Shown: in pieces, positions 1,226-61,934 of the stretch
How the letters are laid out: each line of letters begins with the position of its first letter
Position numbering within the stretch: position 1 is the stretch's first letter
Virus record (IMG/VR): IMGVR_UViG_2821013286_000001
Coordinates: 1-64,000 of that record
Direction: 5' to 3' (one strand)
From: a virus
Taxonomy: Duplodnaviria; Heunggongvirae; Uroviricota; Caudoviricetes
DNA: 64,000 bases
Made by a program: the position numbers and the translations under genes
The notes under the pieces: model-generated
The model's input: only the letters and a program-made list of their open reading frames with translations
The model's database searches: none
Told to the model about the DNA's origin: nothing

Positions 1226-1245
1226 GTAGATAAATGTTTACACAT
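1226..1245. promoter_or_regulatory. palindromic intergenic element (TGTATAAAYRTTTATACA family)
   Basis: gtagaTAAATGTTTAcacat, 50 nt upstream of gene 1296. Confidence 0.5.
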
Positions 1246-1263
1246 AATAAGCGCACAAAGCGC

Positions 1264-1295
1264 AATAACAATTTGACACAAAAACAAGGTTGATC
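1264..1295 (+). promoter_or_regulatory. conserved 5' leader (AATAACA...CACAAAAACAAGGT) abutting the start codon
   Basis: aataacaatttgacacaaaaacaaggttgatc; same leader at 4084, 18001 and 22702. Confidence 0.4.
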
Positions 1296-2243
1296 ATGCC
1301 GAAACAAATTTTCACGTTTAAGCGTCCGGTCAAAAACGTCTCCGATCTGGAGACCGGTGTTGTGACCTTTTCCGCTACAGTTTCTTACGACCAGTTTGAT
1401 CTGATCGCACAGGCAACGACGCCGTTGCGCACCATAGCGTACCGTTCCTTGAAGCACATCGAACCCACTGCTGACGCTCTGGTCGTGAAAATCCTGCAGA
1501 TTCCCGGTCAGTGCTTCGTCCTCGACGGAATGGCGCGAGCGTCGATCTGGAAAAAGAACCAGAAGCTGCGCCCCGGCAAGCTAACTGCCGTTATTTATCA
1601 CGTCGAGGACCCAAACGCGGATGCGCTGGCGATCTATAACGAGATTTACAAGACAATCGACAGCCAGAAAGCCGCGCGAAAGGTGCAGCATTCTGTTGCC
1701 GGCGCTCTTGAGACAGCAATTGGAACGTCCATGAAAAGCTTTATGCGCTTCGGGGCTTTCAGTGGTGCAGTCAAAATGCTTGCGCGCCATTCGACTGCAT
1801 CGTCCGCTGACGCCAAGAATCCTCGCTCTGCTGCGCTTCACTTCGCGCCACAGATCCGCGAGCTGGACGACATCGCGCCGGTGAAAGAGAAGTTCCCTTC
1901 GGCGATGATCGCTGCGGCTCTGGCCGTTTTGCACGTCGATCCGACGAAGATGAAGGCTGCGATTGCTGCCTATAATTCCGGCGCGAACCGTATCACCAAG
2001 AGCGGTAAGTCCAATGCGTTCCAGATGATCGATGAGTATCTGGTCTCTGGCGTGGCGACAGCGAAGAACACGGACATTTACTACCACACGCGCTACCTGG
2101 CGGCATTGCTGCTTTTGGCCGAGGCAAAGCCTAACAGCTTGTTCTCCGTGACCGCGGTCCCTCCTCTTTCTGAAACGGTCTTCAAGTCGATGATCAATCC
2201 GCCGTCCACCAAGTCGGCCGGCAAGATCAAACAGGCTGCGTGA
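1296..2243 (+). CDS. hypothetical protein
   Basis: 317-aa ORF (ATG 1296; track uses TTG 1290) preceded by the conserved leader cacaaaaacaaggt; no confident family assignment. Confidence 0.5.
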   Translation: MPKQIFTFKRPVKNVSDLETGVVTFSATVSYDQFDLIAQATTPLRTIAYRSLKHIEPTADALVVKILQIPGQCFVLDGMARASIWKKNQKLRPGKLTAVIYHVEDPNADALAIYNEIYKTIDSQKAARKVQHSVAGALETAIGTSMKSFMRFGAFSGAVKMLARHSTASSADAKNPRSAALHFAPQIRELDDIAPVKEKFPSAMIAAALAVLHVDPTKMKAAIAAYNSGANRITKSGKSNAFQMIDEYLVSGVATAKNTDIYYHTRYLAALLLLAEAKPNSLFSVTAVPPLSETVFKSMINPPSTKSAGKIKQAA

Positions 2244-2929
2244 GGTCCGCAATGAAAGCGAACTCCATTCAGACGAGGCTCGCCAGGGCGAAGAAGCATA
2301 TGACGCTGTTCTATGCAGGCGAGCCGCTCTTCCCGATGAGCGAAATTGATTTCAGTGAGATTCTGGATGTTCCGGAATCTCACAATAAGGAATTCACGAA
2401 CTTTTTCTTGTCGTCGTTCCGCGAGCGATACGAGAATGCCTGCTATAAAGCTGAAAGTTTGGGTCTCACCTACCCTTACTTCATGCCGAACAAGCGCCGC
2501 GAAGATGGCTCCTACGAGTACTACGCGGCACGTGGCTTCTATATACGCCAGCCGTTCCTTCAGGAGCTGGCCGATATGTACCGGGACGCCAATAAGCGCA
2601 AGGCTGTGCTCCTCGCCTGGAGCCGTATCTCTGCTTTCTCAATCGCCAAGTCTGCAAGCGGTCGCCGTAGGTTCGAGAAGGAAACTGCAGCAATCATGCG
2701 TGAAGTTTTCAACGCTCTAGCCATCGGCGACGAAGCGGATGCGGTCAATAAGATCGTTCGATTGACGCCGGGGCGCGCGAAAGTTCAACCCATCACTGAG
2801 GCGCGTAAGGTTACGCAGAGCACCTTGTTCAAGGTGGATGATCTCGTCAATGAGCAAAGCGAATTGGAAGTCTCCGACGAGGAGATCAACGACGAGTTTT
2901 TTATGAATATTATCAAGAAAAGGGCATAG
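2240..2929 (+). CDS. hypothetical protein
   Basis: ATGA stop-start overlap with upstream gene; 229 aa. Confidence 0.5.
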   Translation: MRSAMKANSIQTRLARAKKHMTLFYAGEPLFPMSEIDFSEILDVPESHNKEFTNFFLSSFRERYENACYKAESLGLTYPYFMPNKRREDGSYEYYAARGFYIRQPFLQELADMYRDANKRKAVLLAWSRISAFSIAKSASGRRRFEKETAAIMREVFNALAIGDEADAVNKIVRLTPGRAKVQPITEARKVTQSTLFKVDDLVNEQSELEVSDEEINDEFFMNIIKKRA

Positions 2930-2931
2930 CC

Positions 2932-4050
2932 ATGAAGATCGGTATCGTGTCGGACCTCCATTGTCATATCTGGTCCACATTTGCCACGACGAACAGTGAA
3001 GGCATCAATTCTCGCCTCGCAACTATTCTGTCCGAGGTTGAGCGCGCAGCAGCCACTGTAAAGGCTGCCGGTGGCAATCTCTTGTTGCTCGGTGGTGATC
3101 TGTTCCACAAGCGCGGCACGATTGACCCTGAAGTGCTCAATCCGGTTCGTGAGACGTTCGGCAATATCCTTCGCATGGGCGTCTCGATTGCTGGAATTCC
3201 CGGCAATCACGATCTGAAGTCGCGTGACACGTCAGCCTTGTCGAGTGCAGTGCAGAACCTGGACGGTCTGAGCGATATCGATGGCGACATGGCTACACAG
3301 ACGGTCACGCTCTTCAACCAGCCAACCGTCAGCGATCTTGGCGGCGTATTTATCGCTTATGTTCCGTGGCGCGAAGATACCGGCTGGCTGCTGAAGGATA
3401 TCGAAGACCTGCTGGCTACATCCAAGGTAGATCCGGCACAGACCTATCTTCTCATTCACGCAGGCATCGACGGTGTTCTGGCTGGCATGCCTGACCATGG
3501 CCTGACGGCTGCCAAGCTCGGTGCATTCGGTTTCCGTGGCGTCTTCTCCGGTCACTACCACAATCACAAGGCGCTTGATCACAACGTGTATTCGATCGGT
3601 TCGCTCACGCACCAAACCTGGGGCGATATCGGAACGAAGGCAGGCTTTCTGCTACTCGACACTGACACGAACGAAGTCCAGTACAATGCAACCCACGCGC
3701 CGTTGTTTCTCGACGTGTCGGATCTCGATGAAGACGATCTCGCAATGGACTGCCCAGGTAATTACGTTCGGTTTCGTGGGCCGCATATGACGCAGGATCA
3801 GATCAACGAGCTGCGCGAGGAACTTATCGACTACGGCGCGGTAGGTGCGCTCATTCAGGTGGCGCGCTCAACTCCGTCCATGCGTCCCGCTGCTTCAGCA
3901 TCTGGCAAGGTCATGTCGCTGGATGATTCAGTGTCAGCGTTCGTTGATGGCCGCAAGGATATTCCGGTTGGCCTCGACGCAGAGGAAATCAAGCGCAGAT
4001 CGCAGATCATTCTCGACGAAGCCCGACTCGTCGATGCAGACGCCTCCTGA
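2932..4050 (+). CDS. sbcD: SbcD/Mre11-family nuclease (calcineurin-like phosphoesterase), T4 gp47-like
   Basis: Metallophosphatase motifs: IVSDLH (motif I), GGDLFH (II), GNHD (III), and later HAG and GH.H motifs. Confidence 0.8.
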   Translation: MKIGIVSDLHCHIWSTFATTNSEGINSRLATILSEVERAAATVKAAGGNLLLLGGDLFHKRGTIDPEVLNPVRETFGNILRMGVSIAGIPGNHDLKSRDTSALSSAVQNLDGLSDIDGDMATQTVTLFNQPTVSDLGGVFIAYVPWREDTGWLLKDIEDLLATSKVDPAQTYLLIHAGIDGVLAGMPDHGLTAAKLGAFGFRGVFSGHYHNHKALDHNVYSIGSLTHQTWGDIGTKAGFLLLDTDTNEVQYNATHAPLFLDVSDLDEDDLAMDCPGNYVRFRGPHMTQDQINELREELIDYGAVGALIQVARSTPSMRPAASASGKVMSLDDSVSAFVDGRKDIPVGLDAEEIKRRSQIILDEARLVDADAS

Positions 4051-4083
4051 CGTTACCCGTCACAAATCACGATAAAAATAAGA

Positions 4084-4111
4084 AATAACAAAGCACAAAA
4101 ACGAGGTAACG
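4084..4111 (+). promoter_or_regulatory. conserved 5' leader
   Basis: aataacaaagcacaaaaacgaggtaacg then ATG 4112. Confidence 0.4.
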
Positions 4112-4824: not shown

Positions 4825-5012
4825 AGCAGTTCGCTACAAAAGCTGTCACGAAGCTCGCAGAGGCTTACCGGGACTATGACCGCGCAAATCCTGATATCGG
4901 CATGGGTCCGAGCGCTGGATACTTCGTGGACATGGCAGCCAAGGCTCTCGATCTGCAAAAGCATGAATACGATGCCGTTGAGGCAGAAAAGACATTGAGG
5001 AACACACGATGA
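4821..5012 (+). CDS. hypothetical small protein
   Basis: ATGA overlap at both ends (4821 and 5009); 63 aa. Confidence 0.35.
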   Translation: MKQFATKAVTKLAEAYRDYDRANPDIGMGPSAGYFVDMAAKALDLQKHEYDAVEAEKTLRNTR

Positions 5013-6949: not shown

Positions 6950-7005
6950 CAATTTCAGCGGGGTTCCAGAAACTCCGCTGTCATTCCGCTTTCTTTGCTG
7001 ATATT

Positions 7006-7028
7006 TATGGATAAACATTTACATACAG
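7006..7028. promoter_or_regulatory. palindromic intergenic element
   Basis: tatggATAAACATTTAcatacag, 5 nt before ATG 7033. Confidence 0.5.
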
Positions 7029-7032: not shown

Positions 7033-7581
7033 ATGGCCATGAGTGAAGAACCAAAAGTTGATGCACCCGCAATGATGTCGAACTCCGAACCTAAGCTCGA
7101 AACACTGAGTAAGGCGCTTTATGCCGCCTATCACAAAGTCCCGATGGATGATGTTGAGCGCCTGAACGACAAGATTATGGCTCCGCTGACCGACGCGGAA
7201 ACGACCGTCAACACGGACATGACGCGCAAGGTTACTGTGAAGATGACGGATGGCTCCGGCTACCGCGCCAAGGTGGTTGAAGCTGATGCGGAATACTTCC
7301 CAACCGACCTAATTTTTATGCGCTCCGGCATACTCGTGATGCGGTTTGAGCCGGTGGACACGCGTGAGTGGGATTACATCGAACTTGGCGCCACACAGGC
7401 CGATCAGCTCTTCCCTGAATTGGCGGCACAGATGCTGAAGGCACATGGCGTCAACAAAGAGCCGGCGTCCACGACGATCATTGAGGCGATACAGCTGATC
7501 CTAGAAGAGTTTGAGAACCAGAAGGACGCGGATCGTGTTCGCGAGGAGTATCAGGATAATCCGCTCTTCGGCATATTTTGA
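7033..7581 (+). CDS. hypothetical protein (C-terminal tail ...EYQDNPLFGIF)
   Basis: 182-aa ORF 5 nt after a palindromic element. Confidence 0.5.
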   Translation: MAMSEEPKVDAPAMMSNSEPKLETLSKALYAAYHKVPMDDVERLNDKIMAPLTDAETTVNTDMTRKVTVKMTDGSGYRAKVVEADAEYFPTDLIFMRSGILVMRFEPVDTREWDYIELGATQADQLFPELAAQMLKAHGVNKEPASTTIIEAIQLILEEFENQKDADRVREEYQDNPLFGIF

Positions 7582-9016: not shown

Positions 9017-9045
9017 TGTTATATAAACGTTTATTTATATACAGT
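9017..9045. promoter_or_regulatory. palindromic intergenic element
   Basis: ttaTATAAACGTTTATTTATATAcag upstream of nrdB. Confidence 0.5.
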
Positions 9046-12049: not shown

Positions 12050-12077
12050 CAATGTAAATAAATATTTACATCCATAG
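12050..12077. promoter_or_regulatory. palindromic intergenic element
   Basis: caatgTAAATAAATATTTAcatcc upstream of thyX. Confidence 0.5.
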
Positions 12078-14701: not shown

Positions 14702-14744
14702 GCCGGTTCTTACCCACCACGAAAAGTCATATCTAGAATTATCA

Positions 14745-14766
14745 ATAGATATTTATACACACAGGA
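14745..14766. promoter_or_regulatory. palindromic intergenic element (half-site strong)
   Basis: aatagATATTTATACAcacagg before gene 14773. Confidence 0.4.
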
Positions 14767-16040: not shown

Positions 16041-16066
16041 TTGTAGATGAATGTTTATACACTATT
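16041..16066. promoter_or_regulatory. palindromic intergenic element
   Basis: tgtagatgaATGTTTATACActatt before gene 16080. Confidence 0.45.
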
Positions 16067-16079: not shown

Positions 16080-16322
16080 ATGTCTAATTGGCAAGACTTC
16101 ACCGGTGAGCTTGGTCGGAAGATGCTCGACCAGGCTCAGTTAGCGATCCAGCGGTTCGAGACAAAGGAAATCGGACTGCTGGAGCTGAAGCGAACGATTG
16201 GAGCCGTCTACGACACGGCTTCAGGGTTAGCGCCGCAAGAAGACCTTCAGGTTGTCGCGGCGATTTACGACAAAGTGGAGAAAGCGTGTGAGCGTCAACT
16301 TTCCAAAAGATGCGTGGATTAA
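16080..16322 (+). CDS. hypothetical protein
   Basis: 80-aa ORF following a palindromic element. Confidence 0.4.
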   Translation: MSNWQDFTGELGRKMLDQAQLAIQRFETKEIGLLELKRTIGAVYDTASGLAPQEDLQVVAAIYDKVEKACERQLSKRCVD

Positions 16323-19565: not shown

Positions 19566-19697
19566 TAGCTAACAATATAGTTAATCAATTATTAGAGGGC
19601 TATATTTCTCCTCTTCTAACCCTTTCTGTGCACATGAATATATATAAATATTCACTCAACGTAAGTTTAAAGATATATCAACAAGTTAGGTCAAGCC

Positions 19698-20015
19698 ATG
19701 GAAAATAGAGCTTCATACCCACCGGTACTCGACCGGCTCATACAGAATGCGTTCATCGAAGGCACTCTGACGATCCGTGAAACTCCAGGCGCATTTGAAT
19801 TAGCTGTTTATAGAAACGGCATCGTAAATGTGATCGCTCGAACGCCGCAGATAAGTTCAGGCGACTACCTGAGCCAGTATGAAAATGCGCTTGTGGAATC
19901 GTTCGGTGAGGCACGCGCTGCAAAGCAAGCCGCGACCGTAGAGGCGACTCCTAAACCGTCAGAGCGTGTCACTGATGCGCAGGCTCGTCGCGCAGCATTC
20001 AAGGTGGTGTCATGA
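19698..20015 (+). CDS. hypothetical protein
   Basis: 105 aa; long AT-rich leader. Confidence 0.45.
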   Translation: MENRASYPPVLDRLIQNAFIEGTLTIRETPGAFELAVYRNGIVNVIARTPQISSGDYLSQYENALVESFGEARAAKQAATVEATPKPSERVTDAQARRAAFKVVS

Positions 20016-20943: not shown

Positions 20944-20972
20944 CATTATAAATAAACGTTTACACAACACGG
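20944..20972. promoter_or_regulatory. palindromic intergenic element
   Basis: cattaTAAATAAACGTTTACAcaacacgg after the NUDIX gene, before gene 21053. Confidence 0.5.
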
Positions 20973-25235: not shown

Positions 25236-26654
25236 ATGAGAAAGGTAACAGTAGCCGCAGCGATCATCACCAAAACGGGCGTTATGCTCTATACGGCTGA
25301 TGGCAAGGAAGTACCGCTCGCGTCAGATGGCTGGCGCACTCAGGAAATTCTTAACCTCGTAACGCCGGTCATCGCGCGCCGCAAAACTATCGAAATCGAC
25401 TTGGACAGCTTCTCGCTGGAGCATGAGGTCGAGCGCAAGACCAACGGCTTTGTTCGCTTCTTCCGCAAGGTCGGTGCGAGCATCACCAGTCTCTTTGGCA
25501 CGAAGGACGGTCAGACAGAACTCGTCACTGACACGCTTACGGAGGCCACAACCGTCGCTGTTGTCAACGGCAAGGAAATTCCAGGAATGGAAAACCTTGA
25601 AAACCACATGATCCACGCCGTTGAAAACGATCAGACGGAAGGTCTCAAAAACTTCCTGGACCGTCTATCTCGCGTGATTGATGAGCGCGGACACTCGGTG
25701 CAGGAACTCCTCAACTTCATGAAGAAGGCTGACCTTCCGATTGCCAATGACGGCTCGATCATCGCCTACAAGACGCTCAACAAGAGCGAGGATCGGTTCG
25801 TTGACTGCCACACCGGCAATGTCAAGCAGCGCGTCGGCTCGCGTGTATCGATGCCGATTGGTTTGGTTGATAAGAACCGCCGCACACTCTGCTCGACTGG
25901 TCTGCACATTGCGCGTCTCCGCTATCTGCGTGGTTACAACGGTAATGTTCTGACACTGGTTAAGATCGCACCGGAAGACGTCGTGAGCGTTCCCTACAGC
26001 GAACCTGACAAGATGCGTGTGGCAGCTTACCACATCGTCAAGCTGCTTCCAGATGACGCTGCGCGTGCCGTTTTCAGCGGTGCATCGATCGCAGGGAACA
26101 AGGAAGCTGAAAAGATGCTTGCTGACGTGATTGCTGGAAAGCACATTCATGTCATCGAGGAAGTTCACATCAAAGGCTCGTACGGCACTGATATCGAAAC
26201 CACTGTCCTTGATGACAAATATAAGCCGGTCGAATCGATTGCCGATTTGTCAACGAAGCCTGTGAAGGTCGAGCTGGTCAAGGAAGGTGGTGGCGGTAAG
26301 CCCGTCGATATCGAGAAGATCCGCGAAACCGCAGACAAGGCGATCGCTGAAAAGGCGAGCGAGACAGAAGTCAAGAAACCTGAAGTCTCCAACGTTGTCG
26401 AGTTCGATGCGGCCAAGACGGTGAACAGTTCAAAGTCGAAGTCGAAGCCGAAGAAGAAAGCCGCCGCTGCGGTGAAGGCTGAGGTTGCGAAGGCTCGTCC
26501 ATCGGTCCCTGCCGCGCCTGACGGCATGAGCGAGCGTGACTTCCAGGTTCTGGCATTGCTCGACAAGGGTGTGTCCAAATCCCAGATCGAACGTGACATG
26601 AAGATTTGCCACAAGACGATCAATAAGATCCTGAAGAAGCATCGCGCTGCCTAA
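25236..26654 (+). CDS. rIIB: rIIB-like protein with C-terminal HTH
   Basis: Central CSTGLHIARLRYLRGY...PEDVVSVPYSEPDKMRVAAYHIV resembles recalled T4 rIIB core (CSRGLHVCS...DVVSIP...KMR); C-terminal LuxR/sigma-region-4-like helix-turn-helix (ERDFQVLALLDKGVSKSQIERDMKICHKTINKIL); AGGAGG SD. Confidence 0.55.
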   Translation: MRKVTVAAAIITKTGVMLYTADGKEVPLASDGWRTQEILNLVTPVIARRKTIEIDLDSFSLEHEVERKTNGFVRFFRKVGASITSLFGTKDGQTELVTDTLTEATTVAVVNGKEIPGMENLENHMIHAVENDQTEGLKNFLDRLSRVIDERGHSVQELLNFMKKADLPIANDGSIIAYKTLNKSEDRFVDCHTGNVKQRVGSRVSMPIGLVDKNRRTLCSTGLHIARLRYLRGYNGNVLTLVKIAPEDVVSVPYSEPDKMRVAAYHIVKLLPDDAARAVFSGASIAGNKEAEKMLADVIAGKHIHVIEEVHIKGSYGTDIETTVLDDKYKPVESIADLSTKPVKVELVKEGGGGKPVDIEKIRETADKAIAEKASETEVKKPEVSNVVEFDAAKTVNSSKSKSKPKKKAAAAVKAEVAKARPSVPAAPDGMSERDFQVLALLDKGVSKSQIERDMKICHKTINKILKKHRAA

Positions 26655-26683
26655 CATTATAGGTAAACGTTTATACAACATTT
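26655..26683. promoter_or_regulatory. palindromic intergenic element
   Basis: ataggTAAACGTTTATACAacattt between rIIB and the RNA ligase gene. Confidence 0.5.
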
Positions 26684-30906: not shown

Positions 30907-30937
30907 CTGTTATGTAAATAAACGTTGATACATAATG
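30907..30937. promoter_or_regulatory. palindromic intergenic element (tandem copy 1)
   Basis: tatgTAAATAAACGTTGATACAtaatg. Confidence 0.5.
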
Positions 30938-30986
30938 AGAATCGGTGCATAAGCCGGTTCTCACCCAACGAGGTGCAGTTTAAAAA

Positions 30987-31015
30987 CAATTATAAATAAA
31001 CATTCACACAAAATC
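30987..31015. promoter_or_regulatory. palindromic intergenic element (tandem copy 2)
   Basis: aattaTAAATAAACATTCACAcaaaatc, 13 nt before ATG 31028. Confidence 0.45.
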
Positions 31016-31027: not shown

Positions 31028-31246
31028 ATGATCCGAGTTATCCTGCCAGATTACAAGATCGAGGATTTTACATCCGCAAACGATGCGGTGAAGACCATAT
31101 CAGCCAGATATGGTCATTTCTTTTGCGCCCATTCACCGAAGTTTGACATCACAGTCAGTCACGTAATCGAAAGCCTTGAGAAAATCGGCTCTGCTTATGT
31201 CGGTTACGGCTTCAGCTCGATCAGCTTCACCAAGCAGGAGGGCTAA
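31028..31246 (+). CDS. hypothetical protein
   Basis: First gene after two tandem palindromic elements. Confidence 0.4.
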   Translation: MIRVILPDYKIEDFTSANDAVKTISARYGHFFCAHSPKFDITVSHVIESLEKIGSAYVGYGFSSISFTKQEG

Positions 31247-37681: not shown

Positions 37682-37711
37682 GCTATGTAAATGAATGTTT
37701 ATACACATAGG
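37682..37711. promoter_or_regulatory. palindromic intergenic element
   Basis: ctatgTAAATGAATGTTTATACAcatagg before the small-peptide gene and the alarmone hydrolase gene. Confidence 0.5.
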
Positions 37712-38413: not shown

Positions 38414-38438
38414 ATTTGTATAAATGTTTATATTAATC
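38414..38438. promoter_or_regulatory. palindromic intergenic element
   Basis: tttgTATAAATGTTTATATtaatc after the alarmone hydrolase gene. Confidence 0.5.
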
Positions 38439-41085: not shown

Positions 41086-41303
41086 TCACTCCCTACTCTC
41101 TTCTGAGGCGCCGGACTGTGTTCTCGTAACACTCTGGCGCCTTGTCGTAAGGTGATGTTCCTGTGAGGCCGCAGCTCAACCACTTTGTCGTAGGCAGACA
41201 CAGCGACATCGAAATTAGCCAAAGCTCCGAGTACCTCGGTAATCCCCCTCCAGTCATGATGCCACTCGTCAATACGAAACCGTAGCTCCGGATGTATGTT
41301 CAT
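41082..41303 (-). CDS. hypothetical protein (convergent with upstream + gene)
   Basis: 73-aa ORF with GGAGTG SD on the minus strand. Confidence 0.35.
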   Translation of the reverse strand: MNIHPELRFRIDEWHHDWRGITEVLGALANFDVAVSAYDKVVELRPHRNITLRQGARVLREHSPAPQKRVGSD

Positions 41304-41659
41304 GTCTCGTCACTCCAATAAGAACAGAACGAGAACATACACCCAAAGCGAAAACTGAATCCACCGCTTTCTAGACGCACATTCTGACAAGTCAGCTTTA
41401 CGTATAGAGACCGAGAGTTGACCGTCCTCACCTACCGAGATTGAAAATACCAAGAGAACGCAACCCCTCGAATTTTGGTTCTCCTTTACGTCAGCTTAGC
41501 GCGAGCTTGGCACGCAGTTGACAGAAACTGCCCAAAACGACCTTTTTGGACGTCAACCTCGGAAACCTCATAGAAGCTCACTGACGAGCGTTTTTAAATT
41601 TCAGGTCACATCATAAGCGAAAACATGAGAACGCTTCTCAGCGCTCAAATCTGACAGCT

Positions 41660-41675
41660 TTCTAGATATCTAGAA
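41660..41675. repeat. perfect 16-bp palindrome TTCTAGATATCTAGAA
   Basis: Read directly from the non-coding hub; TTCTAG half-sites recur elsewhere in intergenic DNA. Confidence 0.55.
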
Positions 41676-41889
41676 CAGTAGAGAACTAGCTATCTTCAAT
41701 TACCGGAACATAGAAGTGAACAACGCTCGAAATCCATAAAGCTAGGCTTCTAGAAACCTACTCACCTATTTCCGATCCGGTAGACCAAAACAGAGAACTC
41801 ACCACGACCGGAACCGGCACCAAATTTCCATATACAGAACGCACCCACTGGAAACGCTGAATTCCCAATGGAAACGGTAGAGAAAAGAA

Positions 41890-42240
41890 CCTCGGAGAAT
41901 TCTCACCTCATAGAAAGACAGAAACCTAGAAAGATAGGCATATAGAGAGAAAGCCTCATAGAAACCTACAGAGACAGATCCATAGAAAGAGAACTACCTG
42001 CGGATATAGAATTCTAGAATTACAGAAAGAAAGGCTCATAGAGAGAAACAGCTAAGAGCATATGCGTAGGAGTGAGAACTGTAGAGAGGTGGCTACGTGA
42101 ATGAGAGAAGTGGCGAGAGAGTAGACGTATGAGTGGAGAGTAGGCTGTGAGAAATAGCGAGAGGTAGAGGGTAGGTGTAGATGAGTGGATAGCGTGAGAA
42201 GGGAGAGGTGGAGAGAAACGTAACGAAGGATGGTGGAGCG
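41890..42240 (+). repeat. purine-rich (GA-rich) low-complexity block on the + strand
   Basis: 42060-42240 is roughly 78% A+G with about 7% C; contains repeated CATAGAAA / TAGAGAG / GAGTGGAGAG words; no credible ORF. Confidence 0.6.
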
Positions 42241-42244
42241 GCGC

Positions 42245-42400
42245 CAGCCAGGCCCTCTTCCTGCCAACCGCCCCGCTCCCCTCCTTCCAGATCCGCAGCC
42301 TAATCCACTCTGGACCAGCCACCGGAACCGCCGCACCCATTCCCGCGAGCCTCTCATGTCCGCAGTTTCCTAGATTCCTGCATTCCTTTAATTCTAGGAA
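42245..42400 (+). repeat. pyrimidine-rich (C-rich) block immediately abutting the purine block
   Basis: ccagccaggccctcttcctgccaaccgccccgctcccctccttcc...; abrupt strand-composition switch at about 42240. Confidence 0.55.
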
Positions 42401-42443
42401 CCGCAACATTTGGAAGCCAAGTTCCGTACATTTATATAAATCT

Positions 42444-42510
42444 ACATTCCTAGATATATATTATATATACATCGCACGGCTTCCAAACACGTCGGGAATG
42501 TGTCCAACTC
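42444..42510 (+). repeat. 55-bp element copy A (alternating TA run + ACATCGCACGGC + AAACACG..AATGTGTC)
   Basis: atatatattatatatacatcgcacggcttccaaacacgtcgggaatgtgtccaactc; about 160 nt upstream of gene 42670. Confidence 0.55.
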
Positions 42511-42669
42511 CTTGAATCTCGCGGCTATCGATGGGTTTCGGTTCCGCATTGTTTGTCTTGCGGTCCGCATCGCCGCGCTTCTAGGAACAAGCTCACCTTT
42601 GCTAAAACGGTAGTCAGAAACAACGAAAGACCGCCACGAAGCGGTCACTCACAAAGCAAGGGTAATGAC

Positions 42670-43707: not shown

Positions 43708-43750
43708 GTTTTAGGCGTATCTATCTTTCTATAAATCTATGTTCATAGAA
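43708..43750 (+). repeat. promoter-like cassette copy 1 (TTTTAGGCGTATCT..TTTCTATAAATCTA..TTCATAGAA)
   Basis: gttttaggcgtatctatctttctataaatctatgttcatagaa; 35 nt upstream of ATG 43785. Confidence 0.6.
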
Positions 43751-44293: not shown

Positions 44294-44329
44294 GCGTAAC
44301 TGCATTTCTATAAATCTAGCTTCATAGAA
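44287..44329 (+). repeat. promoter-like cassette copy 2
   Basis: cttttaggcgtaactgcatttctataaatctagcttcatagaa; 20 nt upstream of ATG 44349; about 85% identical to copy 1. Confidence 0.6.
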
Positions 44330-44348
44330 CGCTAGAAAGGTAAATACT

Positions 44349-44788: not shown

Positions 44789-44835
44789 GTTTTTAGGCTT
44801 ATCTAGCTTTCTATAAAACTAGATTCATAGAGAGC
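44789..44835 (+). repeat. promoter-like cassette copy 3
   Basis: gtttttaggcttatctagctttctataaaactagattcatagaga; 41 nt upstream of ATG 44876. Confidence 0.6.
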
Positions 44836-46544: not shown

Positions 46545-47177
46545 TTAGAGCTTTGCAAGTACCGCTTTCAGCATAGCGTTTTCGGTATTGATCTTATGCG
46601 TTTTGAAACGACCGCTAAACGTTGCACGCTCTTCAGCGCTCAAAAGGTTCAAAATGTTGAGACCTTCAAGAACAACGCTATTGCTCGACGATTGCGTGTC
46701 GCACGTTGCAGCGTCGCAATTCGTCTTACCACGCTTGATTGCATACATACCGCTTTCGCTCTTGTCAGTAATGTAGTCATGCGAGAACGACTTGCGACTA
46801 TCAAGTGAGGTGAAAATTTCACGCTCATTCACGATGAAAAGCTTGATAGTCTTCATTGCAGGTTCAAGAAATGCGTCAAGCGTTGCTTTACCGCTTTCAT
46901 CGATAAGAAACTTCAACATGCTTTGCAGCTTCTTGAGCGCATACATATTTTGCGTGAAAACACCGACATTGCATTGAACGCTATCAAGCAATTCTTCAAC
47001 CTGCTTTACACCGAGCAAAAGAGAAATGTTGTGAAGCATTTTCAGGTTCGGTGCGCTGATAGTACCTTTCTTCACTTCTGCGTCGATACGCGTTGCGAGC
47101 GCAAGCACATACTTGTTTTGAGCTGGTGCATTGTTCGTTGCGTTCTGCTTCTTTGCTACATTCTTAGTCATTGTCAT
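46545..47177 (-). CDS. hypothetical protein in a lower-GC segment
   Basis: 210-aa minus-strand ORF; GC visibly lower (about 44%) than surrounding genes; palindromic element at its 5' side (47186-47212). Confidence 0.5.
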   Translation of the reverse strand: MTMTKNVAKKQNATNNAPAQNKYVLALATRIDAEVKKGTISAPNLKMLHNISLLLGVKQVEELLDSVQCNVGVFTQNMYALKKLQSMLKFLIDESGKATLDAFLEPAMKTIKLFIVNEREIFTSLDSRKSFSHDYITDKSESGMYAIKRGKTNCDAATCDTQSSSNSVVLEGLNILNLLSAEERATFSGRFKTHKINTENAMLKAVLAKL

Positions 47178-47185: not shown

Positions 47186-47212
47186 GTTGTGTGAACGTTT
47201 ATACATATTTGT
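47186..47212. promoter_or_regulatory. palindromic intergenic element (upstream of minus-strand gene)
   Basis: gtgtgAACGTTTATACAtatttg, 9 nt from the start of gene 46545..47177(-). Confidence 0.45.
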
Positions 47213-47467: not shown

Positions 47468-47497
47468 GTTTGTAAATAAACGTTGATTTATATTTCT
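47468..47497. promoter_or_regulatory. palindromic intergenic element
   Basis: tttgTAAATAAACGTTGATTTATAtttc before gene 47552. Confidence 0.5.
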
Positions 47498-47551: not shown

Positions 47552-47782
47552 ATGTCTCAATCCGTTTCAAGCACGTCTGACGAACGCACCGTCAACAACA
47601 CCATGCGCCATGCCTACCGTGTTCTCTCCGATGAGGAGAAGGCGAACATGGGCAAGGTTAAGGATATGGGCCTCGAATTCCATAGTCTTGTCGATGGCCT
47701 TGGCGCCAGCCGCGAACTCTCCATCGCAAAAACCAAAATCGAAGAAGCCGTCATGTGGGCAGTCAAGCATCTGACTGCCTAA
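47552..47782 (+). CDS. hypothetical protein
   Basis: First gene of a + operon after the palindromic element at 47468. Confidence 0.45.
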   Translation: MSQSVSSTSDERTVNNTMRHAYRVLSDEEKANMGKVKDMGLEFHSLVDGLGASRELSIAKTKIEEAVMWAVKHLTA

Positions 47783-49069: not shown

Positions 49070-49201
49070 ATGATCCGAATGATCATCCTGTTTCTCTTCG
49101 CAGCCTTCACGCTCTGGGTAATTCAGTATCAGCCGCCAACACGCGAAAAAGATCCCGTCGTCACCCAAAAAGAGCTTGAATATAAAGGTGAATCTGTATA
49201 A
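49070..49201 (+). CDS. small membrane protein
   Basis: MIRMIILFLFAAFTLWVIQY... single TM helix. Confidence 0.3.
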   Translation: MIRMIILFLFAAFTLWVIQYQPPTREKDPVVTQKELEYKGESV

Positions 49202-49219
49202 ACATTTATTTACATTTTC
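49192..49219. promoter_or_regulatory. palindromic intergenic element
   Basis: ctgTATAAACATTTATTTACAtttt at the end of the + operon. Confidence 0.45.
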
Positions 49220-49282: not shown

Positions 49283-49546
49283 TCAGCCCTTGGAATTTTC
49301 CTTGTACCAAAGGTCCACTGCCTCATAGATCACCTGGGTCAATGTCTTATCGACCGCGACAGCTGCGCCCTTCAGCTTACGATGCCACTCACGATCCACG
49401 ATCACATTGAGCTGTGAGGTGGTTTTGGCGCGCATGTTATCCGCTGGCTTGATGTTGGTATCAAGCGACGTGGCAAAATACGAGCGCTGTGCGGTGCGCG
49501 GTGCCTTCTTTGGCGTGTAGTCTTCTTCATCGTCTGCCATCTTCAC
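49283..49546 (-). CDS. ParG-like ribbon-helix-helix partition protein
   Basis: 87 aa, basic N-terminus, C-terminal RHH-like segment LNVIVDREWHRKLKGAAVAVDKTLTQVIYEAV; 4-nt overlap with the upstream ParA gene. Confidence 0.45.
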   Translation of the reverse strand: MKMADDEEDYTPKKAPRTAQRSYFATSLDTNIKPADNMRAKTTSQLNVIVDREWHRKLKGAAVAVDKTLTQVIYEAVDLWYKENSKG

Positions 49547-50184
49547 ACTCCTGTCCGCTCATCAACCAGTTTATAAATTTCTGTCAGAAGACGCTTGGCG
49601 TCACGCTTGAGCGTGGCAACCTTGACTTCCTGCACCGCTAGTCCTGTCGAGTTCGCAAACGCGTAGGTCGGTCGGAACTTGATCTCGGTCTTGGCGATCT
49701 TGAAACCGCCGCCGCTAATCAATTCGCGCGTCTCCTTGACGGCAATCGCGCTATCGACGGATTTGCTGATGACGAACAGGATATCATCTTTTTTGGCACC
49801 TTTATCGACCAGCTCCAGCGCGAACGCGAGCTGCGGCTCCACATCGTCTGCGATCGGCGCGGTCGGAATAAGGATCAGACGAGAGGCGAGGGCGATATCG
49901 AGCGAGGTATCGTGACTGTCTGGCTTGCCATCGGCCACAACCAGATCGACGCGCTCTTTGCTAAGCATGGACGGCTTGGCATAAGGCTTTGCATCAATCG
50001 CAGGCTCGTATTGGGCCGCCTTGCGTTTCTCATTCCATTTGAAGGAGGTTAGCTGTGTGGTGTTGAAGTCGGCAATCTTCACAGACCAATCATTGCTCGC
50101 ATAGCCAACCGCAATCATGCGCGACAATGTGGATTTTCCGACGCCGCCCTTCTGGCTGAGACAGGAAATAATGACCGGTTCCAT
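49543..50184 (-). CDS. parA: ParA/ParF-type partition ATPase (small type Ib)
   Basis: Deviant Walker A SQKGGVGKST; 213 aa; followed by a small RHH gene. Confidence 0.75.
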   Translation of the reverse strand: MEPVIISCLSQKGGVGKSTLSRMIAVGYASNDWSVKIADFNTTQLTSFKWNEKRKAAQYEPAIDAKPYAKPSMLSKERVDLVVADGKPDSHDTSLDIALASRLILIPTAPIADDVEPQLAFALELVDKGAKKDDILFVISKSVDSAIAVKETRELISGGGFKIAKTEIKFRPTYAFANSTGLAVQEVKVATLKRDAKRLLTEIYKLVDERTGV

Positions 50185-50274: not shown

Positions 50275-50300
50275 AATATAAATAAATGTTTACACAACCT
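50275..50300. promoter_or_regulatory. palindromic intergenic element (ParA upstream region)
   Basis: aatataaaTAAATGTTTACAcaacc, about 90 nt upstream of parA on the minus strand. Confidence 0.5.
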
Positions 50301-52026: not shown

Positions 52027-52054
52027 ATTATGTGGATAAATATTTATACAAATC
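52027..52054. promoter_or_regulatory. palindromic intergenic element (divergent helicase / ParB-like region)
   Basis: atgtggaTAAATATTTATACAaatc. Confidence 0.5.
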
Positions 52055-56163: not shown

Positions 56164-56187
56164 CTGTATAAATATTTATACAATTTT
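56164..56187. promoter_or_regulatory. palindromic intergenic element (contains TATAAATA)
   Basis: ctgTATAAATATTTATACAatttt, 13 nt before the terminase small-subunit ATG. Confidence 0.5.
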
Positions 56188-56850: not shown

Positions 56851-56853
56851 TCC

Positions 56854-58125: not shown

Positions 58126-58128
58126 CCT

Positions 58129-58160
58129 TGTATATGGATAAACGTTTATATACACTATAG
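58129..58160. promoter_or_regulatory. palindromic intergenic element
   Basis: tatggaTAAACGTTTATATACActatagg between terminase large subunit and portal. Confidence 0.5.
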
Positions 58161-58192
58161 GCATATTTTATTCGTTCATTTGAGAGATTGCC

Positions 58193-59806
58193 TTGTCTGA
58201 ATCATTGGAAATGCTGTCTGAGTTTTACTTCAGACGGCACCCAGAATACGACCAGAAGCTGGATCACTGGCGCTTTTGCCGTGCTACCTACAAAGGTGGC
58301 CGCGAGTGGTTTGCTGGCAACATCTTCAAATACTACAAGGAAGGCACTCGCGAATACCGCAAGCGCATCGAGCGCGCCTACCGCTTCAATCACACCAAGG
58401 AAGTCGTTGAGCTTGTCCAGAAATATCTGTTCAAGGCTCCGGTTCAGCGTTCGCCTGACGCTCATGACCTCATCAAGAAGTTCTGGGCAAAGGCCACTCT
58501 TGCAGGCGGCGATATCGACACGCTCGTGCGCGCCGGTTCAACGTCCAACTCGCTGACCGGCATTTGCGCGGTCGTGGTGGACAACAATGCACCGCTCGAT
58601 GACAAGGCCGCGATCTCGATCAAGGATGCGGAGGATATCAGTATCTATGCCTATATCGTGGACGCAGAAGACGTTCTCGATTGGGCCTACGATGAAGATG
58701 GCGACGGTCAGCTTCTTTGGGTAAAGATCCGCGAATTCGTTCGCGATGACGCCGACTATCTGAATTCTACTGGCGATCTGGTTGAGCGTGTCCGCGTATG
58801 GACACGCAAAGAGTGGATCTTGTACGAGCCGCGCTCCACGAAGGCGCTACCTGGCGTCGGACGCACGGCCAATCAGAAGCGTACTGGCATTTCTGTCATC
58901 GAGACGAAGCGCGGCACGCATGACCTTGGTTTCGTTCCTGTCGAGCTGTTCCGTCACACTCCGACTGAGGAGCCTTACGCGTGTTCGTCGCTGATTGACG
59001 AGATTTCCTATCTCGACCGCACGGTCGCCAACTACCTTTCGAACCTCGACGCCATTATTCAGGACCAGACGTTCTCGCAGCTTGCCATTCCGGCTCAGTC
59101 GGTATCGAGCGCTGACGACGACAACAAGAAAGTCCTGGAAATGTCGACGAAGCGCGTCTTCACCTATGACGGTGGCGCCGGTTCGCATTCAAAACCTGAA
59201 TTCATTTCGCCTGATCCCAAACAGGCAGGCGTTATTCTCGATGTGATCAATAAGATCATCAGCGAAATTTACCACACGATCGGCCTTGCTGGTGAGCGCA
59301 CCAAAGAGGACAACTCGGTCGGTATCGATAACAGCTCCGGTGTCGCTAAGGCATATGACTTCGAGCGCGTGAACGCACTGCTGCGTTCCAAAGCTCTCAT
59401 GTGCGAGAAGCTGGAGAACTGGCTTGTCAAATGCGTTCTCGCTTATGCTGGAGAAGAGACCGCAGTTGACGAAAAGCTTGTCACTTATCCGTCCACGTTC
59501 GACGTAATGCGGCTGGCGGATGAGCTGACAACTGCGGAGGCACTTCAGAAGATCTCGGCACCTGATGAAGTCCGTCAACTCCAAATGAAAAACCTGACCA
59601 AGAAGCTGTTTCCGCAGATCGACAAGAAAGCGGAACAGAAGATTGGCAAGTCTATTGACGATTGGAAGCCTTCCGAAGTGGCGAAAACAGCAGCGCCATT
59701 TGGGAACGATCCAGCCGCCAAGGGCAAACAACCGTCTGATAAGGACAAGTCCGTAGCGCAGCCGAAGCGTCAGGGACAGGTCACGAAGGACACCCCATCT
59801 AAGTAA
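58193..59806 (+). CDS. portal protein (putative)
   Basis: 537 aa, immediately downstream of the large terminase in canonical order; start ambiguous (TTG 58193 or ATG 58211). Confidence 0.5.
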   Translation: MSESLEMLSEFYFRRHPEYDQKLDHWRFCRATYKGGREWFAGNIFKYYKEGTREYRKRIERAYRFNHTKEVVELVQKYLFKAPVQRSPDAHDLIKKFWAKATLAGGDIDTLVRAGSTSNSLTGICAVVVDNNAPLDDKAAISIKDAEDISIYAYIVDAEDVLDWAYDEDGDGQLLWVKIREFVRDDADYLNSTGDLVERVRVWTRKEWILYEPRSTKALPGVGRTANQKRTGISVIETKRGTHDLGFVPVELFRHTPTEEPYACSSLIDEISYLDRTVANYLSNLDAIIQDQTFSQLAIPAQSVSSADDDNKKVLEMSTKRVFTYDGGAGSHSKPEFISPDPKQAGVILDVINKIISEIYHTIGLAGERTKEDNSVGIDNSSGVAKAYDFERVNALLRSKALMCEKLENWLVKCVLAYAGEETAVDEKLVTYPSTFDVMRLADELTTAEALQKISAPDEVRQLQMKNLTKKLFPQIDKKAEQKIGKSIDDWKPSEVAKTAAPFGNDPAAKGKQPSDKDKSVAQPKRQGQVTKDTPSK

Positions 59807-59905
59807 TTGGCGAGAGACTGTCCAATTGCTGCATCAATTTTCAACAGAAGGCCAAGAGACCGGCCACTCTAGCGATCCGAGAGACTGGATCAGGAGATTT
59901 TTAAA

Positions 59906-60802
59906 ATGCATATTTTGATGAATAAATACCTCGCACGCATGCCGCTTTGGGAGCCGGAAGGTAAAAGCGGCGGTGGCGGTGATGGCAAGGACGGCCAGGA
60001 TGGCAATGAACCTGCCAAGACCACAGACGAAGACAAGGGCGGTGATCGCAAGTCCGGCGACGATGACGAGGGAAAGGGTGACGGCGAAGGCGGCGACGAT
60101 GAGGTTGTTGAACTTCGCAAGAAGCTGAAGGAGCGCGACGACGAGAATGCGCGCCTGCTCCGCGAAAGCATGAAGCGCAAGGACGAACTGAAGAAGTTCG
60201 CTGGCATCGATCCTGCGCGCTACAATGAGCTTGTCAGTCAGGAAGACCAGGCGCGTCAGGCCAAGGAAGACGCTGACCGCACCGCTGCCGAAAAGGCTGG
60301 CGATTTTGAGCGCGTCAAGCAGATGATGGCTGACAGCCACAAGAAGGAAACCGACAAGCTTCAGGAGCAGATCGACGCGCTGACGGCACAGATCGGCGAT
60401 AAGGACAAGACGATTGAAGAGCTGTCGCTCGGCAATTCATTCTCATCCAGCTCGTTCATTGGTGAAAACCTGATCCTGTCGCCTGCCAAGGCTCGCAAGC
60501 TCTACGGCTCGCATTTCGAAATCGAAGACGGCAAGGTCATCGGTTACGACAAGCCTGCTGGCGCAAAGGACCGCACAAAGCTCGTCAATGGCGCAGGAGT
60601 TGCGCTCGGCTTCGAAGCTGCAATCGCTGCAATCGTGGACGCTGACAGCGATAAGAACACGATCATGAAGTCGAAGATGAAGCCTGGCTCTGGATCTCGC
60701 ACCAATTCAGGCGGCGACAAAGAGCCTGCCAAGAAGGGTGACGGTCTCACCGGAATTGCTCGAATGCGTGCTTCTGCCAGTAATTTCGTAGGCGGCAAGT
60801 AA
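59906..60802 (+). CDS. scaffolding protein (putative)
   Basis: Gly/Asp/Lys-rich low-complexity N-terminus, long charged coiled coil, positioned between portal and major capsid; terminator downstream. Confidence 0.45.
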   Translation: MHILMNKYLARMPLWEPEGKSGGGGDGKDGQDGNEPAKTTDEDKGGDRKSGDDDEGKGDGEGGDDEVVELRKKLKERDDENARLLRESMKRKDELKKFAGIDPARYNELVSQEDQARQAKEDADRTAAEKAGDFERVKQMMADSHKKETDKLQEQIDALTAQIGDKDKTIEELSLGNSFSSSSFIGENLILSPAKARKLYGSHFEIEDGKVIGYDKPAGAKDRTKLVNGAGVALGFEAAIAAIVDADSDKNTIMKSKMKPGSGSRTNSGGDKEPAKKGDGLTGIARMRASASNFVGGK

Positions 60803-60825
60803 CAATCCAGATCACTGAAAAGATA

Positions 60826-60858
60826 AGGCGCGGTATAGCTCACCGCGCCTTTCGTTTT
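60826..60858 (+). terminator. rho-independent terminator after the scaffold gene
   Basis: AAGGCGCGGT-atagctc-ACCGCGCCTT TCGTTTTG. Confidence 0.6.
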
Positions 60859-60873
60859 GCAGCGCTTAGGCTG

Positions 60874-60902
60874 CAATATAAATAAATGTTTACATATATA
60901 GG
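60874..60902. promoter_or_regulatory. palindromic intergenic element (contains TATAAATA)
   Basis: caataTAAATAAATGTTTACAtatatagg upstream of the major capsid gene. Confidence 0.5.
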
Positions 60903-61000
60903 ATGATCGCTTACAATGCCATCCCAGGTTAAGGCGTTTATACCGACGTCTATACAACCGAGACATTTTTTATGAATTTTTAATTTGGAGTTTTTCGAAA

Positions 61001-61900
61001 ATGCCACTGCTGTTGTCTGAAGCATCCAAGCTGAGTCGTGATGACTTTCAGCGGGGTGTGGTAGAAGAAATCGTAACCGAGGACGCTCTTTATTCGCTGC
61101 TTCCTTTTGTCGGTACTGAAAACCGCGTTTACTCGTACACCCGCGAAGGCGTGAATGCTGAAGGTGCATGGGTTGAAGCCTACGAAGAGCTTGAAGAAAG
61201 CGCCTCGACCTTCGTGGAAGTCGACACTCGCATCAAGGCGCTCATTGGTCAGGTGGATATGGATAACCTCACGGTTATTTCCGAATCCAACATCAATGAT
61301 CAGGTCGCTTTGCAGGTCGCCGCGAAGGCAAAGGGCATGTCCCGCCAGTTCCGCTCGGCACTCATCAATGGTAGCGCGACTACCAATAACAAGCAGTTCG
61401 ATGGCATCAAGAACCTCATCGTTCCGACGCAGACGCTCGATGCAGAAGGTTCTGCCGTTACGCTAGCTATGCTGGACGAGCTGAAGGACAAGGTTCCGCT
61501 CGGCGCCGACTTCTTCATGATGCGTCGCGGCACCTGGCGCGCTATCAAGGGTCTTCTGCGTGCAATGGGCGGCAACACCGCTGAACACGTCATGCTGGAA
61601 AATTTCGGCCAGCCGGTTCCTGTCTACGACGGCATCCCGGTTCTGTTCTCGGAATTCATCGGCACCGACAAGGGCGCTGCTGAAGGCGATCCGGAAACCA
61701 CTTCGATCTACGCGATCCGCGCAAACGAAGTTGACGGCGTCCATGGCATCTTCGTTGGCGGCAATGCCGGTCTCGAAGTCAAGGCTATGGGCGACCTCGA
61801 AGATTTTGACGCTCAGCGTTATCGTCTTCGTTGGTATGCCGGTCTCGCTCTGAAGGCCACTCATTCCTGCGCTCGCATTAAGGGTCTCACCAACCTTTAA
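61001..61900 (+). CDS. major capsid protein (HK97-fold size class)
   Basis: 299 aa; bracketed by intrinsic terminators and a strong promoter-like element; position after scaffold. Confidence 0.6.
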   Translation: MPLLLSEASKLSRDDFQRGVVEEIVTEDALYSLLPFVGTENRVYSYTREGVNAEGAWVEAYEELEESASTFVEVDTRIKALIGQVDMDNLTVISESNINDQVALQVAAKAKGMSRQFRSALINGSATTNNKQFDGIKNLIVPTQTLDAEGSAVTLAMLDELKDKVPLGADFFMMRRGTWRAIKGLLRAMGGNTAEHVMLENFGQPVPVYDGIPVLFSEFIGTDKGAAEGDPETTSIYAIRANEVDGVHGIFVGGNAGLEVKAMGDLEDFDAQRYRLRWYAGLALKATHSCARIKGLTNL

Positions 61901-61904
61901 TCTT

Positions 61905-61934
61905 GAGTATGGATAAACATTTATCTACAATTGG
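61905..61934. promoter_or_regulatory. palindromic intergenic element
   Basis: gagtatggaTAAACATTTATCTACAattgg after the major capsid gene. Confidence 0.5.

Follow-up and report, generated by a model that had tools for sequence, protein, structure and literature searches.

A 64,000-nt stretch of the caudoviricete record IMGVR_UViG_2821013286_000001 (positions 1 to 64,000, in the following the window) carries 22 copies of a short, dyad-symmetric DNA element with the consensus TRNATAAA-YR-TTTAYAYA, all of which lie between genes. We propose that this element is a dispersed operator that overlaps core promoters and is bound by a global, phage-encoded dimeric repressor, most likely a helix-turn-helix (HTH) protein of the XRE type, and we hold this interpretation with moderate confidence. 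The phage itself is a siphovirus of the RHEph10/SSU5 phage-plasmid group. To our knowledge, the control of lysis and lysogeny in phages of this kind is essentially uncharacterised, and a full-text search with motif strings, together with the repressor and operator literature on RHEph10, B1VFA and SSU5, yielded no description of the element.

These 64 kb belong to the 107,825-bp Logan contig SRR10127684_59, of which 82,277 bp were covered, i.e. the window with 8.7 kb upstream and 9.6 kb downstream. Sites were defined by a symmetrised position weight matrix (PWM; score of at least 18) scanned over these 82 kb, and the genes of the window by our own codon-usage-based gene call. The scan returned 28 sites, and the score distribution is bimodal, with a clean gap down to the best remaining score of 12.9; 22 of the sites fall in the window, with starts from 1227 to 61910. 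A first-pass annotation of the window, made from the sequence alone, had counted at least 22 copies and a degenerate one, and its observation is confirmed; the 22 sites given here include the degenerate copy at 14742. Such a frequency is far beyond chance: the exact core TAAAYRTTTA was found 14 times against 0.05 expected (0.08 when the expectation is taken from mononucleotide shuffles of intergenic DNA alone), and the 18-mer TGTATAAAYRTTTATACA with up to three mismatches 17 times against 0.01. The annotation was also right that no copy lies in coding DNA, as all 22 are found in the intergenic 14.5% of the window (chance p ~3e-19). Its statement that the element marks nearly every transcription unit went too far, since only 20 of the 42 intergenic gaps of at least 70 nt hold a site. 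An exact-motif scan of IMG/VR gave single, chance-level matches only.

Alignment of the 28 sites extends the dyad to 22 bp (T R T R N A T A A A Y | R T T T A Y A Y A n A), beyond the 18-mer noted before. T at position -1 (25 of 28 sites) is mirrored by A at +20 (20 of 28), the two halves are conserved equally over the entire span, and the central step is a pyrimidine followed by a purine in every site, while the identity of these two bases varies, as does position 3. Single copies are imperfect palindromes, with 4-9 of 9 pairs complementary. In addition, a weaker, T-rich block resembling TTGACC at -13 to -7 has no mirror image downstream and lends the element a directional component. Overall, its dimensions are those of a dyad-symmetric operator of about 14-22 bp, as bound by proteins of the Cro/CI type.

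The comparison with related phages, which the first-pass annotation had suggested, revealed that each carries its own version of the palindrome, with about 25-45 copies per genome, the same architecture and orthologous positions. For instance, the Rhizobium phage RHph_X66 (X66) has about 45 copies of TAAGTAAK-NN-MTTACTTA, RHEph10 about 35 copies per 100 kb of TCAGTMAAT-ATTGAYTGA, and the Klebsiella phage-plasmid pJN2-26 at least 24 copies of TARGTAAGTACTTACYTA, which is almost of the X66 type; Salmonella SSU5 has 26 copies of the pJN2-26-type palindrome. Among 20 IMG/VR loci found with a sigma-factor profile, we encountered the X66 and RHEph10 types as well as others, such as TAACTAAT-NN-ATTAGTKA in locus L010 and AGTCAGTAA-TTACTGACT in L020; a further locus, L032, has TAAGTMAG-NGC-TKACTTA. 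With the half-sites aligned on the dyad, T at -5 and A at -3 are common to all versions, and the other positions differ. They are built of 4-bp boxes, first direct and then inverted, as in (TAAG)(TAAG)NN(CTTA)(CTTA), and span at least five specificities. The Pseudomonas phage nickie has no such palindrome family, its best cluster being at the level of shuffled sequence. Phages of one and the same Rhizobium species carry differing palindromes, which implies that the site is read by a phage-encoded factor that evolves along with it, and which rules out a site for a host transcription factor. The earlier impression, of a target for one dedicated phage factor rather than a sigma-70 promoter motif of the ordinary kind, is supported.

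The best candidate for this factor is a protein of ~130 residues with a Cro/CI-type HTH, here referred to as XRE, which is encoded beside the replication module in the relatives examined. It is present in all 16 relatives for which the region was available, ~4.5 kb upstream of the sigma gene and just upstream of the CobT-CobS(-sigma)-PolIII-alpha operon. Full-length homologs with 34% identity to the X66 protein occur in five Klebsiella and four Escherichia phage-plasmids; in these enteric phages, the gene adjoins an integrase and is divergent from the CobT operon, from which a palindrome separates it. In Cyrano, where it likewise stands beside the integrase, it is annotated as "putative repressor". 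Members of the family include QWY83032 of X66, gp041 of RHEph10, pJN226_0108 of pJN2-26 and CYRAN_45 of Cyrano. XRE is missing from nickie, which is itself palindrome-free, and is the sole dimer-type DNA-binding protein that we found to track the element in the Rhizobium, Klebsiella and Escherichia members. Its conserved recognition helix, x-N-M-I/V-T/S-M-L/I-K, parallels the T-A-A core that the half-sites have in common, and the turn reads K/S-N in phages with TAAG-type sites and T-Q/T-S/K-T/A-Q in those with TCAG-type sites; the distant Klebsiella XRE groups with the TAAG-type turn. This pattern follows phylogeny too and is thus no more than suggestive. SSU5, which is called virulent in a passage of PMC5427195, has no integrase and XRE block and has kept 26 sites; XRE, if it is the binder, should consequently be dispensable for lytic growth, as befits a repressor rather than an activator. 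Two unrelated integrative elements with XRE-family members, L033 and L034, have no similar palindromes near these genes.

Separately, we observed that the sites at the XRE gene itself are altered. In RHEph10-type phages (L006, 35047-35064; L024, 5210-5235), the palindrome upstream of the gene has a 4-bp insertion between its half-sites, AATCAAT-CGGT-ATTGACT, and the corresponding site of X66-type phages has the right half TTGACT. Judging from their sequence, these are probably variant operators at the regulator's own locus.

In the window, the sites accompany genes of all kinds. The first two copies, TAGATAAATGTTTACACA (1227-1244, score 25.3) and TGGATAAACATTTACATA (7008-7025, score 25.3), lie 51 nt upstream of the plus-strand gene 1296-2243 and 7 nt upstream of the start codon at 7033, respectively. 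TATATAAACGTTTATTTA (9020-9037, score 28.4) precedes the small-subunit gene of ribonucleotide reductase (RNR), and its upstream flank AACCTTTTTATTTGTCAAG is conserved with X66 at the orthologous RNR promoter, with the palindrome swapped. TAAATAAATATTTACATC (12055-12072, score 21.0), upstream of ThyX, is followed by a hairpin with a 9-bp stem, and the degenerate copy TCAATAGATATTTATACA (14742-14759, score 18.7) by a ribosome-binding site (RBS), AGGAG, that starts 3 nt past its end. TAGATGAATGTTTATACA (16044-16061, score 24.1) is found 18 nt upstream of the ATG at 16080, TATATAAATATTCACTCA (19641-19658, score 22.5) 39 nt upstream of the gene at 19698, and TAAATAAACGTTTACACA (20949-20966, score 26.2) between a NUDIX gene on one side and a DUF3768 gene on the other. 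The stop codon of the rIIB-like gene lies 5 nt before TAGGTAAACGTTTATACA (26660-26677, score 25.6), which has an RNA ligase gene downstream and a hairpin after it. The tandem pair seen before at 30.9-31.0 kb is recovered by the PWM scan as TAAATAAACGTTGATACA (30915-30932, score 24.2) and TAAATAAACATTCACACA (30993-31010, score 22.8), the latter 17 nt upstream of the ATG at 31028. As a side observation, the stretch 30915-31010 with the two palindromes also encloses a perfect 10-bp GC-rich hairpin, GAGAATCGGT...GCCGGTTCTC.

Further along, TAAATGAATGTTTATACA (37688-37705, score 24.7) precedes the gene for an HD_4 protein resembling alarmone hydrolases and is followed by TGTATAAATGTTTATATT (38417-38434, score 24.0). 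TGTGTGAACGTTTATACA (47188-47205, score 23.8) lies 16 nt upstream of the minus-strand gene 46545-47171, and TAAATAAACGTTGATTTA (47473-47490, score 23.5) 61 nt upstream of the plus-strand gene at 47552. TGTATAAACATTTATTTA (49195-49212, score 27.9) is surrounded by convergent genes, 70 nt downstream of a parA-parG-like operon and followed by a bidirectional hairpin, while TAAATAAATGTTTACACA (50279-50296, score 25.9) stands 94 nt upstream of ParA on the minus strand. TGGATAAATATTTATACA (52033-52050, score 26.7) occupies the divergent region between a helicase gene on the minus and a ParB-like gene on the plus strand, the perfect copy TGTATAAATATTTATACA (56165-56182, score 28.3) lies upstream of a gene resembling the small terminase, and TGGATAAACGTTTATATA (58135-58152, score 27.5) fills the gap between TerL and portal. 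The gene of the major capsid protein (MCP; 61001-61900) is framed by two copies: after a terminator at 60825-60851 comes TAAATAAATGTTTACATA (60879-60896, score 26.1), 104 nt upstream of the gene, and 9 nt past its stop codon comes TGGATAAACATTTATCTA (61910-61927, score 25.7), directly before an intrinsic terminator at 61933-61952. The order of MCP stop codon, palindrome and terminator recurs in X66, RHEph10, pJN2-26 and SSU5. The copies at 49195 and 61910 do not fit the first-pass annotation's description of positions simply upstream of the first genes of operons.

The position of the sites relative to genes restricts how they could act. In 7 of the 28, a start codon follows 7-22 nt past the palindrome, with the RBS in between, so that transcription must start inside or upstream of the palindrome. 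Several sequences would be consistent with a -10 hexamer at or near its left edge. In this phage, positions -4 to +1 have the consensus nAWTRT; a TTGACA-17-CATACT match ends on the first base of site 56165, and a TTGCAA-16-TATTAT match 2 nt ahead of site 52033. Likewise, the promoter of the Cyrano repressor, TTTACA-16-TAATAT, ends on the first base of its palindrome, and the mean -10 score in pJN2-26 and SSU5 peaks at -4 to +1. In X66, many palindromes lie 0-12 nt past GCGCTATAA, a motif resembling the alpha-proteobacterial -10. The X66 XRE gene and several replication genes have a CTCGCTATAAG-type promoter with no abutting palindrome, as expected for genes that are expressed in the repressed state.

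On these grounds, we envisage the following mechanism. A single phage-encoded dimeric regulator would bind an 18-22 bp dyad operator that is situated at, or immediately next to, the core promoter or 5' end in roughly half the transcription units, including early, late, partition and tRNA units. The A/T-rich left flank and the first T of the palindrome would form the -10 hexamer, and transcription would start near the central pyrimidine-purine step; with this arrangement, a bound dimer would occlude RNA polymerase. The binder would be the ~130-residue XRE protein encoded beside the replication module, and its presence would repress the lytic genes globally during maintenance of the plasmid prophage. 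Site and protein would then co-evolve into distinct specificities, much like immunity types.

Several observations weigh against this proposal. The trees of the sigma factor and of XRE both follow the phage phylogeny, and the covariation of XRE with the sites is therefore not independent evidence. In the phage studied here, the presence of XRE is predicted by synteny with its relatives, with an expected position outside the window: a search with a CobS fragment returned results that do not include this phage's own protein, a search with an XRE profile did not place its XRE among the best 120 matches, and a search with the XRE of L010 returned L010-like proteins only. The sites of SSU5, which has no XRE homolog, could mean that there is another binder or that the sites are parts of promoters. 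As to the promoters, canonical sigma-70 matches are not enriched near the sites (8 found, 11.4 expected) and their offsets are inconsistent. The TTGACC-like block at -13 to -7 is ambiguous in that it would put the -10 in the right half, and the right flank of the enteric sites (positions 17-22) outscores the left one as a -10; in pJN2-26, moreover, a TG at +25/26 fits such a different geometry, which SSU5 does not reproduce. Two positions, namely 49195 and the one between the MCP stop codon and terminator, are outside a simple promoter-operator model and resemble L5 stoperators or partition sites more closely than promoter operators. Lastly, a site also accompanies the partition operon, whose products the plasmid state requires.

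The first-pass annotation had found no obvious regulator because it had read the window alone. Besides XRE in the relatives examined, there are two other candidates, a ParG-like ribbon-helix-helix (RHH) protein in the window and a phage sigma factor 7.6 kb upstream of its start.

The ParG-like protein (85 residues, 49283-49540, minus strand; PF09274, E 9.8e-5, 22.9 bits against a cutoff of 21.4) is the sole dimer-type DNA-binding protein found within the window, and together with its partner, a ParA-type ATPase of 213 residues (49543-50184, minus strand), it forms a type Ib partition module (49283-50184). It could bind the sites and double as a global regulator, in the manner of KorB with its OB sites or of omega, in which case the palindromes would be dispersed centromeres and operators at once. 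The par operon has a site upstream (50279) and another downstream (49195) between convergent genes, where no promoter is expected; ParA was found in all palindrome-positive genomes tested and is missing in the palindrome-free nickie; and the build of the palindromes from direct and inverted 4-bp boxes is reminiscent of sites of RHH proteins. Nevertheless, we regard this as unlikely, if less so than the explanations that follow. The ParA proteins of the Rhizobium and SSU5 branches are only ~25% identical, and their small partners have no detectable mutual similarity, with no Pfam match in pJN2-26 or SSU5. The palindromes of X66 and pJN2-26 are nearly identical even though their par modules are not detectably orthologous, and the par operon of X66 lacks a downstream site. 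Besides, 25-45 promoter-proximal sites are far above the number in any type Ib centromere known to us.

Slightly less probable still is that the palindrome is the core promoter of RNA polymerase carrying the phage sigma factor, i.e. an extended -10 such as those read by T4 gp55 or phiEco32 gp36. The sigma gene (216 residues; positions 453-1103 of L002) follows CobS in this contig and in all relatives of the Rhizobium branch, and its products are only ~30% identical across phages with different palindromes. Furthermore, the motif is A/T-rich, and the sites of X66 stand ahead of both tRNA and protein genes. The likeness to T4 had been raised in the first-pass annotation, which found the -10 core of the T4 late promoter, TATAAATA, in many copies; it is present in 9 of the 22 window sites, counted on both strands. 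Beyond an A/T-rich motif near the transcription start, the analogy fails. The T4 late promoter is an invariant, asymmetric TATAAATA, whereas the element is two-fold symmetric over 22 bp, with NATAAAYR and a mirrored right half, and a monomeric sigma factor leaves the equal conservation of both halves unexplained. The phage sigma profile matches SigA/RpoS from region 2 through the 3.2 linker into region 4.1, where region 4 begins, and a protein with such a region-4-like part should read separate -35 and -10 boxes rather than a dyad. There is also a bootstrapping problem, in that the sigma operon itself bears sites. Above all, tblastn detected sigma homologs only in ten Rhizobium phages, and pJN2-26 and SSU5 have CobT-CobS-PolIII without sigma, yet contain 24-26 closely similar palindromes; with neither an invariant TATAAATA nor a co-occurring sigma factor, we rejected a promoter of the T4-late or phage-sigma kind.

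It is improbable, in our estimate, that the palindrome is more than an operator, namely the specificity element of a phage-private class of promoters, for which a dimeric phage-encoded factor, XRE in most lineages or another, would be required by the host RNA polymerase at most genes and in all temporal classes. Fast divergence of this factor and its site would then give co-infecting phage-plasmids transcription systems insulated from one another. Such insulation would be akin to that of the T7, T3 and SP6 promoter specificities, except that here a DNA-binding dimer would act together with the host enzyme.

We think it rather more doubtful that the palindrome stands in for the -35 at most genes, as a site that an activator must occupy, like the P1 Lpa inverted repeat at about -22. 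In pJN2-26, TG and a weak -10 follow at a fixed distance past the palindrome (T25 in 15 and G26 in 14 of 24 sites), the enteric right flank at 17-22 reads TAYTAT and has the best mean -10 score, no conserved -35 is found at the proper distance upstream, and 61903-61931 reads TTGAGT-17-TACAAT, with the palindrome within the spacer. In SSU5, however, TG at +25/26 occurs in only 3 of 26 sites, and the -10-like GCTATAA of X66 lies upstream of the palindrome at a variable distance. More importantly, a -10 at ~12 bp and a start at ~20 nt downstream of the dyad, as for Lpa, are not what we find: a transcription start 11-20 nt downstream is impossible at the 7 of 28 sites with a start codon 7-22 nt past the palindrome, and the start codons at the pJN2-26 portal site and at its site 74984 are likewise too close. 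These start codons exclude the Lpa-like geometry as a general rule, and we rejected it. A phyletic screen with blastp found no conserved candidate activator common to all palindrome-positive genomes; only ParA, the HD_4 hydrolase and the RNR-beta type are present in all of them and missing in nickie.

A role at the RNA level, whether as a hairpin at the 5' or 3' end, as a site of RNase processing or as an extragenic palindrome of the REP kind, is very improbable and was rejected. The copies do lie in intergenic, transcribed positions, about 8 of 28 have a clean GC-rich stem-loop within 30 nt downstream, and two stand directly before intrinsic terminators, but in a crude minimum free energy (MFE) test the downstream hairpins are not enriched over random windows, and the palindrome itself forms no stable stem, with a mean RNA MFE of -1.2 kcal/mol for the 22-mers and -0.35 for shuffles. 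Nor are there compensatory changes: the outer pairs are mostly non-complementary and uncompensated (pair 2/17, Fisher p 0.43, in the wrong direction), pairs 2/17, 4/15 and 9/10 do not covary, and neither do the variable K/M positions of X66, which combine T with C in 8 of 15 cases. What is conserved is sequence, not pairing, and with it the 5'-hairpin offered by the first-pass annotation falls away; the window has no Rfam match and no tRNA. Its other suggestion, a link to the rIIB-like protein (25236-26654) through a C-terminal LuxR-type HTH, we rejected as well, since the GerE match, at 16.9 bits (E 0.005), falls short of the 23.5 bits that Pfam sets as its cutoff.

According to Pfam and PHROG matches, the genes encode an Mre11/Rad50-like nuclease, RNR, ThyX, a dUTPase, RNA ligase, RtcB, the HD_4 hydrolase and a helicase, together with rIIA- and rIIB-like proteins, two ParB_N proteins, and ParA with the ParG-like RHH protein; there are also a terminase, a portal of the SPP1 type and a capsid protein of the HK97 type. 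CobS, the sigma factor, PolIII-alpha, a gp32-like single-stranded DNA-binding protein (SSB) and RecA are encoded on the contig just before the window begins, in synteny with X66 and RHEph10. The portal is 54-56% identical to those of the Rhizobium siphophages X66, B1VFA, V1VFA-S and RHEph10, and ~46% identical to those of nickie and of SSU5-type phage-plasmids from Klebsiella, Escherichia and Salmonella. A published description (PMC12509600) calls B1VFA and V1VFA-S phage-plasmid-like. A portal-based search of viral contigs gave no match, and no relative closer than these emerged when collections of genomes and metagenomes were searched for the locus by its sigma gene.

The window also contains a second family of repeats, CTTTCTATAAA(T/A)CTA(G/T)nTTCATAGA (CTTTCTATAAATCTAnnTTCATAGA), with copies at 43727-43750, 44306-44330 and 44809-44832 and partial copies near 353, 42432 and 50258. 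It resides in a stretch poor in open reading frames (ORFs), 40-46.5 kb, in which the main palindrome has no copy, and may represent another promoter class, e.g. the target of the phage sigma factor. Within this stretch, 41086-42669 comprises 1.58 kb without an ORF of at least 40 residues and is rich in CTAGA and TCTAGA words. A different repeat was seen at the X66 SSB gene (L004, 20477-20520; X66 record, 70477), where a promoter-like GCTATAA motif is followed by TAGATAGCTAAATAGCTAGATAGCTAGG; AGCTA-rich repeats like it are also present in L017, L026 and L028.

Phage-plasmids of the SSU5 type are widespread among clinical Enterobacteriaceae, where they carry resistance genes, and their RHEph10-type relatives infect rhizobia. 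For this group, our analysis outlines a regulatory map with one palindrome family of about 25-45 copies per genome and a single family of candidate repressors that is conserved across hosts from the alpha- to the gamma-proteobacteria. The diverged specificities, at least five in number, may define immunity groups, and the virulent SSU5 would be a natural "repressor-less" member. If the proposal is true, it would explain how a lytic programme of ~110 kb is silenced in the plasmid state and would provide a handle to induce or lock phage-plasmids of the SSU5/RHEph10 type.

Among known systems, the element appears to resemble the P1 C1 operators, the phiC31 CIRs, the L5 stoperators and the KorA/KorB sites of RK2, and to be set apart from each by its symmetry, the family of its binder or its copy number. 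In P1, a single repressor, C1, acts on many operators that are scattered over a plasmid-maintained phage of ~100 kb and overlap the promoters of many operons. Dispersed, promoter-overlapping sites and one proposed repressor in a phage-plasmid, here predicted from sequence, are common to both; the P1 operators, in contrast, are asymmetric 17-mers, C1 is not of the XRE type, and the late genes of P1 are controlled indirectly via Lpa, whereas here the structural genes bear the site directly. RK2 KorA/KorB and pSM19035 omega are dimeric repressors that act on short palindromes or box arrays at most operons, and KorB and omega are also partition proteins. The ParA/ParG-like pair of the window, with sites on both sides, is reminiscent of them, but these systems have 7-12 sites rather than the 30-45 here, and neither the KorB OB site, TTTAGCSGCTAAA, nor the omega heptads are related to the element in sequence. 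In L5 and other cluster A phages, dozens of repressor-binding stoperators occupy the short gaps between genes in both early and late operons, also at non-promoter positions, and silence the prophage. The 22 intergenic copies in early and late operons of the window, with non-promoter positions among them, match this description; the stoperators, however, are asymmetric 13-14-mers oriented with transcription, while the element is dyad-symmetric and only its mild left/right asymmetry follows gene direction. Finally, the phiC31 CIRs are inverted repeats of ~17 bp that number roughly 18 or more, lie for the most part between genes and close to promoters, and serve as binding sites of the c repressor. 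The many intergenic, promoter-proximal inverted repeats of the phage studied here are thus similar to them, except that the phiC31 repressor belongs to another family, that its host, Streptomyces, belongs to another phylum, that phiC31 integrates instead of being maintained as a plasmid prophage, and that the element described here has diverged into at least five specificities among relatives.

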